A stretch of 64,000 bases of DNA. Source: Candidatus Multivoradales bacterium. GTDB taxonomy: Bacteria; Acidobacteriota; Thermoanaerobaculia; Multivoradales; JAHEKO01. Shown one piece after another: positions 23,313 to 24,707 of the stretch (positions are counted from its first letter, which is position 1; each line of letters begins with the position of its first letter). The notes under the pieces were generated by a model. That model did not search any database. It was not told the origin of the DNA and saw nothing but the letters and a program-made list of their open reading frames with translations. Position numbers and translations under genes: made by a program. Where the stretch lies: positions 480,001 through 544,000 of the forward strand of contig CBDCVR010000015.1 in assembly GCA_965223155.1 (NCBI GenBank), given 5' to 3'.

Positions 23313-24707
23313 CTACACCTCGTAACGCCGAACCGGTGTCGCCGGCAGCGGCAGTTCCTCCGCGACCTGCTCGACGGCTCGGCGCAAGATATCTCGCTCG
23401 GTCCGGTTCAGATCCCGGGGCAAGCGCACTCCTCCCGAGACTTGGACCATGGTCAGAAGGATACCCAACAAGACGACCATCGCCAGGCTGAAGAGCGTGA
23501 TCGCGACCACCTCGCTACGAGCCGCCCACGCCGCCGGCAGGATCCGGACGAAGAGCGCCGCGATGCCCGAGGCCATCAGCATCGAAAACAAGCTAAACAA
23601 CACGGCGGCCCGGTTGGTCGGAGCGCGCAGAAACAAGCTCACCTGCTCCCGAGCCTCGTCGATGCGCTCGCCCATCGACAGCTCGCTCGGATGCTCCCCG
23701 CGCCCGATGAGCGACAACAACGAGCCCACCAGGTCGCTCAAGTTGAGATCTGCGACCACTCCCTCCGTGGCCTCGATCTCGGCGCGCCGCTGGGCCAGCT
23801 CGTCCAGGATGATCTTCGAAGGCGGCGGCGGGTCTCCCACGAAATTGGCCATCTGCGAAACCCGGCAGCCGGCCTCGATCAGCGGGGTGACGTCCATTCC
23901 GGTTTCGACTCCCAGACTCTGGAACATGCTCGCCAACTCTTCGGTGGCGATGTTACCGACCGAGTGGCGAACCGTGATGGCGCCGCCGATACCGCCGATC
24001 GAGGCGTCGAAAACACGCACCCCGGCCCGGTAGGCGACGTAGGCGTTGGTCACTCCCAGACCGCGCCGGTCGTGCAAGTGCACGCCGATCGGATCGAGAC
24101 CGAGGGTCGGCTCCAAAGAGCCCACGGTGCGCTCGATATCGACCGGAGTCGCCATGCCATCGGTATCCGAAAGAGCGATGGTCTCGCAACCCATCTCGAC
24201 CAACCGGCGACAGATGGCTTCCACCCGAGCCACCGGCATCAGACCGTCCGGCTCGTTCTTGTCACGGAAGGCATACGAAAGGTATCCGCGCAGCCGGTAG
24301 CCATCTCCCACCGCGGCTCGAGCCACCTCCTCGGCCGCGTCCAGGGCCTCGTCGACGCTCATTCGAGTATTGGCGCGCGAATAGGCTTCGGAGGCGGCGA
24401 CGAAGAGCGCCACGGTGTCGACGCGTTCCGCCTTGCGCAACTGCTCGTAGTACTCGAGCGTCGGCGCCAGAGCCGCGATCTGGCCGTCGTAGGCCGGCAT
24501 GCGACGCAGCAGCTCCGCCGTGTCCCGCATCGCCGGCACCACCCGCGGGTTCACGAAGGAGCCCACCTCGATATAGGGAACGCCGGATCGGATCAGAGCC
24601 TCGACCAACTGCAGCCGGGCCTCGATCGGAATCGCGGCATGACGGTTGAGAATCTGCATGCCGTCGCGCAACGACACATCGCAGATCTTGACTTCCGGAA
24701 CCGGCAT
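23313..24707 (-). CDS. HMG-CoA lyase-like (DRE-TIM metallolyase) protein with a C-terminal 2-TM extension
   Basis: DVSLRDGMQ, IEVGSFVNPRVVPAMRD, LSDTDG, HLHD, GNIATE, followed by about 160 extra residues containing two TM helices. Start reset to ATG 24707. Confidence 0.85.
   Translation of the reverse strand: MPVPEVKICDVSLRDGMQILNRHAAIPIEARLQLVEALIRSGVPYIEVGSFVNPRVVPAMRDTAELLRRMPAYDGQIAALAPTLEYYEQLRKAERVDTVALFVAASEAYSRANTRMSVDEALDAAEEVARAAVGDGYRLRGYLSYAFRDKNEPDGLMPVARVEAICRRLVEMGCETIALSDTDGMATPVDIERTVGSLEPTLGLDPIGVHLHDRRGLGVTNAYVAYRAGVRVFDASIGGIGGAITVRHSVGNIATEELASMFQSLGVETGMDVTPLIEAGCRVSQMANFVGDPPPPSKIILDELAQRRAEIEATEGVVADLNLSDLVGSLLSLIGRGEHPSELSMGERIDEAREQVSLFLRAPTNRAAVLFSLFSMLMASGIAALFVRILPAAWAARSEVVAITLFSLAMVVLLGILLTMVQVSGGVRLPRDLNRTERDILRRAVEQVAEELPLPATPVRRYEV

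Follow-up and report, generated by a model that had tools for sequence, protein, structure and literature searches.

The subject of this report is a pair of adjoining genes in a 64,000-nucleotide stretch of DNA from a Candidatus Multivoradales bacterium (contig CBDCVR010000015.1, positions 480,001–544,000). This stretch is referred to as the window, and the genome from which it comes (G000) is 98.7% complete. The first gene (23313..24707, minus strand) encodes P0001, an HMGL-like protein of 464 residues whose translated open reading frame (ORF) starts MPVPEVKICDV. The second (22941..23309, minus strand) has a GTG start, begins 3 nucleotides past the stop codon of the first, and encodes P0002, a protein of 122 residues. 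Both are embedded in a cluster in which all genes are read from the minus strand in the order methylcrotonyl-CoA carboxylase (MCC) beta subunit, 255 nucleotides, lyase gene, 3 nucleotides, P0002 gene, 7 nucleotides, enoyl-CoA hydratase. An earlier note, made from the letters of the DNA alone, had described P0001 as a 3-hydroxy-3-methylglutaryl-coenzyme A (HMG-CoA) lyase-like enzyme that carries a membrane tail and lacks the catalytic cysteine, and had paired it with a histone-like membrane protein encoded downstream.

Residues 1–300 of P0001 (23808..24707, minus strand) make up a DRE-TIM, HMGL-like core that matches PF00682 over residues 6–279 (4.4e-38). The earlier note had called this core intact, and its two signature motifs, RDGMQ (R14–Q18) and HLHD (H210–D213), are indeed present. 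The canonical HMG-CoA lyases of known structure are DRE-TIM barrels (human HMGCL 2cw6/3mp3, P. aeruginosa 2ftp, Brucella 1ydn, B. subtilis 1ydo; 33–39% identity, about 280 residues), and P0001 matches the HMG-CoA lyases in the PDB with E values from 1e-43 to 3e-36, with 2ftp and 2cw6 at about 1e-43. In the alignment with human 2cw6 (numbering offset 27, checked at His233, His235, Cys266 and Asn275), R14, D15, E47, Y142, H210, H212 and N252 of P0001 correspond to Arg41, Asp42, Glu72, Tyr167, His233, His235 and Asn275. The excerpts of two papers (PMC6941031, PMC3435538) list Arg41, Glu72, Tyr167 and Cys266 as critical, together with the metal ligands Asp42, His233, His235 and Asn275. The seven P0001 residues are invariant or nearly so in 79 tailed family members (alignment A2), and with Q18 they are kept in both clades when 119 sequences without the cysteine (Cys-less) are set against 28 canonical ones. 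The G-loop of P0001, GGIGGAITVRHSVGN (residues 238–252; 23952..23996, minus strand), aligns without gaps to the GGCPYAxGAxGN loop of the solved lyases; its length is unchanged, and Ala243 (23979–23981) stands at the position of human Cys266, as had been read from the loop in the earlier note. Further residues are fixed in the clade and differ from the canonical enzymes, namely Cys9 (human Val36), Arg22 (Glu), Tyr109 (Phe), Arg148 (Gly) and Asp183, the last of which corresponds to human Ile206, two residues past Asp204. Relative to canonical lyases, P0001 also has a two-residue insertion after RDGMQ. As a hypothesis drawn from this alignment, Cys9, Tyr109 or Asp183 could act as a relocated proton donor.

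The altered loop was found to be a property of a whole clade. A homologue search with P0001 gave 320 matches, of which 120 were listed, and these 120, query included, were aligned. Their loops were of the type GGIGGA-ITV-xHS in 83 cases and of other Cys-less types, including GGLGGNKIVENS and GG(I/V)GGSKAV, in 36; a single protein, P0084, had a Cys loop. On the other side of the comparison, the canonical loop GGLGGCP(Y/F)APGASGN was found in 27 of 27 HMGL genes from other genomes of the same class. (The 27 canonical loops, the 28-sequence canonical set and the class tallies given below include the unpublished genomes G135, G004 and G104; locus L007 is from G135.) In a tree of 46 rows hand-picked from about 150, with P0084 and most near-duplicates left out, all Cys-less sequences were set off together by a branch of length 1.73 with support 100/100, which places them as a deep clade, sister to the canonical HMG-CoA lyases. 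Within it, the tailed group to which P0001 belongs (the 'A' group) was monophyletic (100/99), as was a second tailed group, 'S' (99/92), which is sister to soluble forms. By this tree and alignment, loss of the cysteine is not peculiar to the tailed form but defines the whole deep clade, soluble members included.

Three observations on individual proteins and genes belong here. P0084 is a 308-residue protein on a 1264-bp contig; its first ~235 residues resemble the tailed family (~75% identical by eye), after which it continues with a canonical GGLGGCPFAPGATGN loop and C-terminus, and BLASTP gives 70% over a 276-residue alignment. It is possibly an assembly chimera or a natural recombinant. 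A second HMGL-like gene, L072 (G015:C2:47100-50921, minus-strand ORF 1411-2712), is found in the sister-genus genome G015. Its G-loop, GGLGGTPIMKGASGN, has Thr for Cys, and in the tree the gene joins the canonical clade through a very long branch of 2.17; its neighbours presumably encode an isochorismatase-type hydrolase and a CoA-transferase. Finally, a contig scan with the single protein returned one confirmed locus, an unrelated 27%-identical DRE-TIM gene.

Several members of the Cys-less clade have the genomic surroundings expected of an HMG-CoA lyase. Soluble Cys-less members (L053, L054, L056, L058, L062 and L066) adjoin MCC-beta and/or hydratase genes that are 63–84% identical to those of the window, and the S-tailed member L055 likewise lies beside MCC-beta and hydratase genes in the same range of identity. 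Because its members sit beside these genes, the Cys-less clade takes the genomic place of HMG-CoA lyase; L069, which has the canonical Cys, adjoins an MCC-beta-like gene as well. The earlier note had advised a search for a second, canonical lyase in the genome. The PF00682 search of the own genome found no canonical HMG-CoA lyase; it gave two matches, of which the one other than P0001 is LeuA-like and adjoins leuB, leaving P0001 as the sole HMGL-type gene. MCC-beta orthologues are present in all five genomes of the family and are 76–81% identical in the four relatives. In one of these, G121, the orthologue is followed by an ORF (L092; G121:C339, ORF 3298-4659) that starts MKTVRIGNGSGFWGDS and that we take to resemble the AtuA/DUF1446 proteins of acyclic-terpene utilisation clusters.

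The feature that sets P0001 apart from the soluble members of its clade is a family-specific tail (residues 301–464; 23316..23807, minus strand), in which a helical linker, a predicted transmembrane (TM) hairpin and a C-terminal helix, predicted to be cytoplasmic, follow one another. The ~160 extra residues and the two TM helices reported earlier were recovered by hydropathy analysis. TM helix 1 is predicted at residues 367–387 (23547..23609, minus strand; Kyte-Doolittle peak of 2.26 at 369–387) and TM helix 2 at residues 399–420 (23448..23513, minus strand; peak of 2.89 at 400–418). Two hydrophobic segments past a shared GDPPPPS motif were found in 79 of 79 tailed members, and the conserved elements of the tail in alignment A2 are QVSLFLxAPTNRAAVLFSL, ALFVR.LP..W, AITLFSL.MVLL.G, a PR...ER helix and the YEV end. 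The positive-inside pattern, together with the need for cytoplasmic CoA esters, suggests a topology with both termini inside the cell. In a search with the tail alone (residues 305–464), 59 of 59 matches carried PF00682, and the same tail on other enzymes was therefore rejected; the search covered proteins of 255–812 residues and relies on shared words. A cryptic histone half in the tail was likewise rejected at the sensitivity of the method, in that hhalign gave probabilities of at most 3.1% for three tail segments against the N-terminal and TM domains of P0002.

Proteins of the S group, about 435 residues long, also have two hydrophobic segments, and here too a common origin was considered and rejected, hhalign giving the two tail types a probability of 1.3%. 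Since the tails show no detectable relationship and the tree separates them, two gains are favoured, and the membrane anchor was probably acquired twice within the Cys-less clade. The S-tailed metagenome locus L055 (~1629–2909) encodes a Cys-less HMGL protein of 426 residues with the loop GGIGGSRAVRNSVGN and an unrelated 2TM tail. Its gene lies between those for MCC-beta and hydratase, and a histone-like partner gene is absent from the locus.

That so unusual an architecture might be an artefact, in the form of an assembly chimera, a lost stop codon or a mis-called ORF, was a concern already raised in the earlier note. The odd relative P0084, in which a family-type N-terminus is joined to a canonical Cys loop, would be in keeping with such accidents and may itself be a chimera. 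In P0001, on the other hand, the tail is family-wide and thus neither unique to this assembly nor the product of stop loss. Among the matches listed, the full architecture recurs in 79 clusters (444–514 residues, 65–82% identity, 94–100% query coverage), which come from several sources and lie on contigs as long as 6.8 Mb. Orthologues were found in two other genomes and 36 metagenome loci, and when words were sampled from the stretch, 80–99% of them were present in four sequencing runs of one study; no RNA data set was listed as containing them. To the extent that sequence data can show it, an artefact is refuted, and we give it next to no credence.

The partner protein P0002 consists of two parts. 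A histone-fold-like segment spans approximately residues 11–62 (23124..23279, minus strand) and is read from a family profile (A3) as L1-alpha2-L2-alpha3; because only ~10 residues precede the aligned L1-alpha2, alpha1 is apparently missing. Residues 70–121 (22947..23102, minus strand) form a predicted 2TM hairpin, and no other part of P0002 is as well conserved in the close-family alignment (A1). Its invariant residues are G77, A78, G79, L80, L81, G82, F84, Q86, G87, F88 and E91 in the first part and Y105, V106, I108, G109, F110, G112, F114, V116, F117, W118 and S119 in the second. Two hydrophobic segments were present in 52 of 52 aligned members. The close relatives comprise 58 clusters, two of which are called 'histone H3/H4' by JGI. 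A search of 1.84 billion representatives with the A1 profile found 129 proteins at E<=1e-3, mostly ~120 residues long and with the same layout, so that the hairpin signature is common to a broader family of ~120-residue proteins. None of the 129 matches, at any length, was a fused lyase-histone protein. The sole long match, P0237 (771 residues), has five separate stretches that match the N-terminal domain (profile positions 7–58); its first 200 residues, the sole part inspected, look unrelated to HMGL, and a repeat protein or low-complexity noise may lie behind this match. The ESM Atlas had no entry for P0002 or for the tail of P0001, and the homologue P0125 led only to unnamed clusters of 138–145 residues.

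The histone-like character of P0002, claimed in the earlier note, was found to emerge at the level of the family. P0002 itself has no Pfam match: the curated histone models PF00808 and PF00125 are unmatched, and a PF00808 search of the own genome at E<=10 was empty. The A1 profile matched only TAF12 (0.71) and H4 (2.5) in the PDB. With the A3 profile, built from 95 members of the broad family, most of the 60 PDB matches listed were histone-fold chains, with E values from 1.3e-4 to about 0.1 at profile positions ~8–60. The top histone-fold matches were a tandem H2B (1.3e-4), M. kandleri 1f1e (0.0016) and viral histone doublets (0.003–0.004), and further ones included HPhA (0.0078), NC2-beta, NF-YB/HapC, H3 and HMfA (0.087); the non-histone matches included a single designed helical protein and the lids of AAA+ proteins (RuvBL, Cdc6). 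Of the 95 broad-family members, 8 match PF00808 (best 9.5e-4) and 17 match the LonB AAA-lid. These profile matches modestly support a histone-fold-like assignment for P0002 at family level.

The nature of the partner also bears on the idea, raised in the earlier note, of a membrane-tethered acyl-CoA sensor, taken here to mean that P0001 has no catalytic role and passes its signal on through the histone-fold neighbour. In its favour, the canonical catalytic cysteine is lost, and DNA or other proteins are conceivable ligands of a histone-fold domain. Moreover, the excerpts of Schwab et al. (2024, Nat Commun 15:7950, PMC11390915) describe a category of 'transmembrane' histones, prokaryotic histone-fold proteins with acquired TM domains in which the usual DNA-binding residues are missing, and suggest for them roles beyond genome organisation. 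The conservation of all catalytic and metal residues other than the cysteine in the 79 tailed members and in the wider clade is, however, the pattern of an active enzyme. In addition, soluble members of the clade occupy the lyase slot of liu clusters, and no regulator-type domain was found in P0001 or P0002 with Pfam or NCBIfam. We therefore regard such a sensor as very unlikely.

P0001 and P0002 are tied together by the arrangement of their genes. Loci were pooled from the window, the related genomes G015 and G010, and 36 metagenome loci, and a tail-type locus was taken as assessable when it extended at least 400 nucleotides past the lyase stop (n = 17). A P0002 homologue lies downstream of the lyase on the same strand in all 17, with its aligned part starting 3–53 nucleotides past the lyase stop (in L040 it is split over two frames). 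A candidate partner start is found between −3 and +11 nucleotides from the end of the stop codon in 16 of the 17; the exception is L004, with its homologous start at +38. In the window, the last codons of P0001, TAC GAG GTG TAG (Y-E-V-stop; 23313..23324, minus strand), contain GAGG, a Shine-Dalgarno-like motif for the downstream gene. The lyase gene ends in TA(C/T) GAG GTN stop at 15 of the 17 loci and in TAC GAG GCC at L042, so that GAGG is present in 16, the exception being L043. The placement of this motif in the last lyase codons explains why the tailed proteins end so often in YEV (53 of 79) or YEA (8 of 79). When 401 sampled genomes of the phylum were searched with the tailed lyase at E<=1e-60 and with the TM-histone profile at E<=1e-4, both gave matches in the same 3 genomes and in no others. 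The genes around the pair differ from locus to locus: liuB lies upstream at L003, L004, L034-L037, L064 and L065, and a hydratase gene follows the partner at L003, L004, L035, L036 and L051. Because the neighbours vary, the lyase-P0002 pair is the only constant unit. The two genes are a conserved, tightly coupled module, as the earlier note had supposed.

Such coupling could in principle reflect co-expression without binding, in which case the tail would be a simple anchor and P0002 a small membrane protein in its own right, whose role, for example in membrane organisation or homo-oligomer formation, has only a loose connection with the lyase. The occurrence of the P0002 hairpin signature throughout the broad ~120-residue family suggests a self-contained function of this sort, the S-tailed branch does without a partner at L055, and hhalign finds the tail segments unrelated to the partner domains. 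What makes a loose association improbable is the strict adjacency at 17 of 17 loci amid varied neighbourhoods, the position of the partner's ribosome-binding motif inside the last codons of the lyase gene, and the identical presence and absence of the two across 401 genomes. The tail helices, furthermore, show far more conservation than a passive anchor would normally call for.

In G010 the liuB, hydratase and HAD genes are contiguous, the lyase is absent from the cluster, and the pair is found on another contig. The separate position of the pair in that genome indicates that it moved as a unit, and the direct adjacency of liuB and hydratase there indicates that the module was inserted into the liu cluster in the G000/G015 lineage. 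This insertion may account for the long 255-nucleotide gap upstream of P0001. Genes similar to two that lie beyond liuB in the window also flank liuB in G053 and G010, from which it follows that the synteny upstream of liuB predates the insertion of the lyase pair. The two are a gene for a 451-residue protein (27326-28681, minus strand) that has no Pfam match and contains the motif VHELVHLLNRRALGPALP, and a MoaD-MoaE fusion gene (26677-27348, plus strand) upstream of liuB.

The remaining features of the cluster are as follows. The liuB-like gene (24963..26627, minus strand) at its upstream end encodes a 554-residue MCC-beta protein (Pfam Carboxyl_trans, 1.2e-137). Among solved structures it matches MCC beta of P. 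aeruginosa best (3u9r_B, full length, E 1e-160), which makes the label 'liuB-like' used in the earlier note a sound one; human MCC beta gives 6.2e-150. The gap between the liuB-like stop at 24963 and the ATG of P0001 at 24707 spans 255 nucleotides (24708..24962, minus strand) and contains the TAAGAT box reported earlier at 24768-24763. The suggestion that the lyase gene has its own promoter there did not find support: a consensus scan detected neither a sigma-70-like nor a terminator-like site on the minus strand of the gap, where a non-consensus promoter may still lie. The corresponding gap in relatives is only ~50–135 nucleotides, and Rfam gave no match in the 255 nucleotides at E<=1. An alternative upstream start for P0001 exists at GTG 24818; since homologues begin at the equivalent of ATG 24707 in alignment A2, the ATG is preferred. 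The hydratase gene (22139..22933, minus strand) begins 7 nucleotides past the stop of the partner gene and encodes 264 residues (Pfam ECH_1, 8.7e-38). By Pfam, NCBIfam and PDB comparison the product is a generic crotonase, and from its genomic context it is a candidate methylglutaconyl-CoA hydratase in the role of LiuC. A 98-residue ORF (21841-22137, minus strand) abuts the end of the hydratase gene; it has no Pfam match and may not be a real gene, and relatives carry a HAD-like gene in its place.

The organism probably also makes HMG-CoA for another purpose. An HMG-CoA synthase gene lies within the window (41432-42538, plus strand; Pfam HMG_CoA_synt_N/C), and an HMG-CoA reductase gene (G000 C15:458480-459607; PF00368, 8.2e-117) is found on the same contig ~21 kb before the window starts. 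From these two genes it is probable that a mevalonate pathway runs alongside the lyase module. In a class sample of 151 genomes, in which an HMGL-type gene was scored as present when the best match reached E<=1e-30 and counts were made by hand, 65 were positive for the reductase. An HMGL-type gene was found in 17 of these 65 (3 tailed, 14 ordinary) and in 67 of the 86 reductase-negative genomes. Reductase and HMGL-type lyases thus tend toward mutual exclusion, a tendency read from related genomes that are not independent samples. We speculate that HMG-CoA derived from leucine may enter the mevalonate pathway without detour, and that cells of this kind would have to restrain a lyase.

From the anatomy of the two proteins, their conservation, clade position, gene coupling, co-occurrence and genomic context, we infer lyase activity, a membrane topology, a physical complex and a role at a metabolic branch point. 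Put together, these describe a working HMG-CoA-type lyase that is membrane-tethered and Cys-independent and is produced jointly with a membrane subunit of histone fold. Of the readings considered this is the most likely, and we hold it to be about as likely true as not. P0001 would carry out retro-Claisen cleavage without the G-loop cysteine. As an integral protein of the inner membrane, it would present its TIM barrel to the cytoplasm, followed by the TM hairpin and a short cytoplasmic helix. Because the ribosome-binding site of the partner lies in the last codons of the lyase gene, the two proteins would be made in a fixed ratio. P0002 would most likely serve as a membrane subunit or scaffold whose TM helices pack against those of the lyase and whose histone-fold domain dimerises. 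Insertion of the module between the MCC-beta and hydratase genes would have placed it under co-expression with leucine catabolism, and tethering or control of the lyase at the membrane may keep the HMG-CoA pool of the mevalonate pathway from draining. A stronger version, in which the histone-fold protein is an obligate membrane subunit of a metabolic enzyme, forms a TM bundle of 2+2 or more helices with it, and dimerises or gates the lyase so that HMG-CoA is split for energy only when the mevalonate pathway has no need of it, is offered tentatively and is in our view more doubtful than not.

A number of observations weigh against the proposed membrane-tethered lyase. The excerpts of PMC6941031 and PMC3435538 rank the cysteine that is absent here among the most critical catalytic residues, and the NCBIfam HMG-CoA lyase model NF004283 gives P0001 225.2 bits where its cut-off is 246. 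Since P0001 lacks the cysteine, scores below the model cut-off and, at 464 residues with two hydrophobic segments, departs from the soluble form of ~300 residues, it should not be filed as a canonical HMG-CoA lyase (EC 4.1.3.4 family), though it probably works like one. At 10 of the 17 assessable loci (L005, L038-L045, L047), neither liuB nor a hydratase gene is found in the flanks, and the neighbours there vary, with NRAMP-like or permease-like genes as examples. No HMGL-type gene was found in the same-family genomes G053 and G121, which do have an MCC-beta orthologue; the pathway context can therefore do without this lyase. For the alpha subunit of MCC there are only candidates, in that biotin carboxylase and biotin carboxyl carrier protein genes are present in the own genome and could supply it. 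Sequestration of the lyase is not obligatory, since 14 genomes of the class combine the reductase with an ordinary soluble HMGL-type match. The membrane anchor needs no histone partner, as the sole S-tailed locus seen, L055, has none, and the occurrence of the partner's TM signature in a broad family may make it doubtful that P0002 is tailored to the lyase.

Some of these points are those on which a change of chemistry would build. P0001 could be catalytic and yet act on another substrate or in another reaction, as a membrane-bound lyase or condensing enzyme for which the place in the liu cluster is secondary. Its substrate might be a different, possibly lipophilic, 3-hydroxy-3-alkylglutaryl-CoA, a related beta-hydroxyacyl-CoA, or one of different stereochemistry; an R-stereospecific leucine route in another bacterium appears in the abstract of PMC6689899. 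The active site is remodelled at clade-conserved positions, through replacement of the G-loop Cys by Ala, Asn or Ser, the RDGMQ insertion, and Arg22, Asp183, Tyr109, Arg148 and Cys9. The low NCBIfam score and the 10 of 17 module loci outside liu clusters fit as well, and an anchor that was probably gained twice would suit a membrane-associated substrate. Yet soluble and S-tailed members of the clade lie exactly in the expected HMG-CoA lyase slot beside MCC-beta and hydratase genes, the own genome has no other HMGL-type gene, and no conserved neighbour points to an alternative substrate. A changed substrate or reaction is therefore rather unlikely, and an HMG-CoA-type lyase held at the membrane is preferred to it.

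How such a membrane-held lyase would relate to known systems can be stated briefly. P0001 shares with canonical HMG-CoA lyases the metal ligands (Asp, two His and Asn), the Arg, Glu and Tyr, and the MCC-beta and crotonase genes as neighbours. It differs from them in Ala243, the RDGMQ insertion, the residues Cys9, Arg22, Tyr109, Arg148 and Asp183, the TM-hairpin tail, and an obligately adjacent partner gene. The human enzyme HMGCLL1, or er-cHL, which is associated with the endoplasmic reticulum, is similar in being an HMG-CoA lyase that acts on the surface of a membrane and not in the soluble compartment usual for these enzymes (excerpts of PMC3435538). Unlike P0001, er-cHL retains the cysteine (Cys281) and is a peripheral rather than integral membrane protein, according to the excerpts of PMC3435538 and PMC6941031, whereas P0001 has two predicted TM helices and a gene for a partner protein beside it. 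P0002 is tied to a specific enzyme gene, unlike the transmembrane histones of Schwab et al., for which the excerpts of that paper (PMC11390915) give neither partner nor function. The same excerpts describe RdgC-histone operons, which resemble the module in that a histone-fold gene belongs to a conserved multi-gene operon that includes a TM protein, an arrangement read there as functional coupling. The partners in those operons are different ones, namely a 4-domain TM protein and a protein resembling RdgC. Their histone is a soluble protein, regarded as DNA-binding, and a metabolic enzyme is not among the components. Our literature searches found no description of a lyase-histone pair of the present kind.

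A deep clade of HMG-CoA-lyase-like enzymes without the critical cysteine, in the place of the lyase of leucine catabolism, challenges the accepted mechanism or implies that the proton donor has been relocated. As far as our searches show, P0001 is the first integral-membrane form predicted for the HMG-CoA lyase family, and the 'transmembrane histones', until now without a function, gain a concrete and testable partner. The module would stand at the branch point between isoprenoid synthesis and the catabolism of leucine or ketone bodies. If P0002 proved to be an obligate membrane subunit of the enzyme, this would be a first function for a 'transmembrane histone' and a new form of control at the HMG-CoA branch point.

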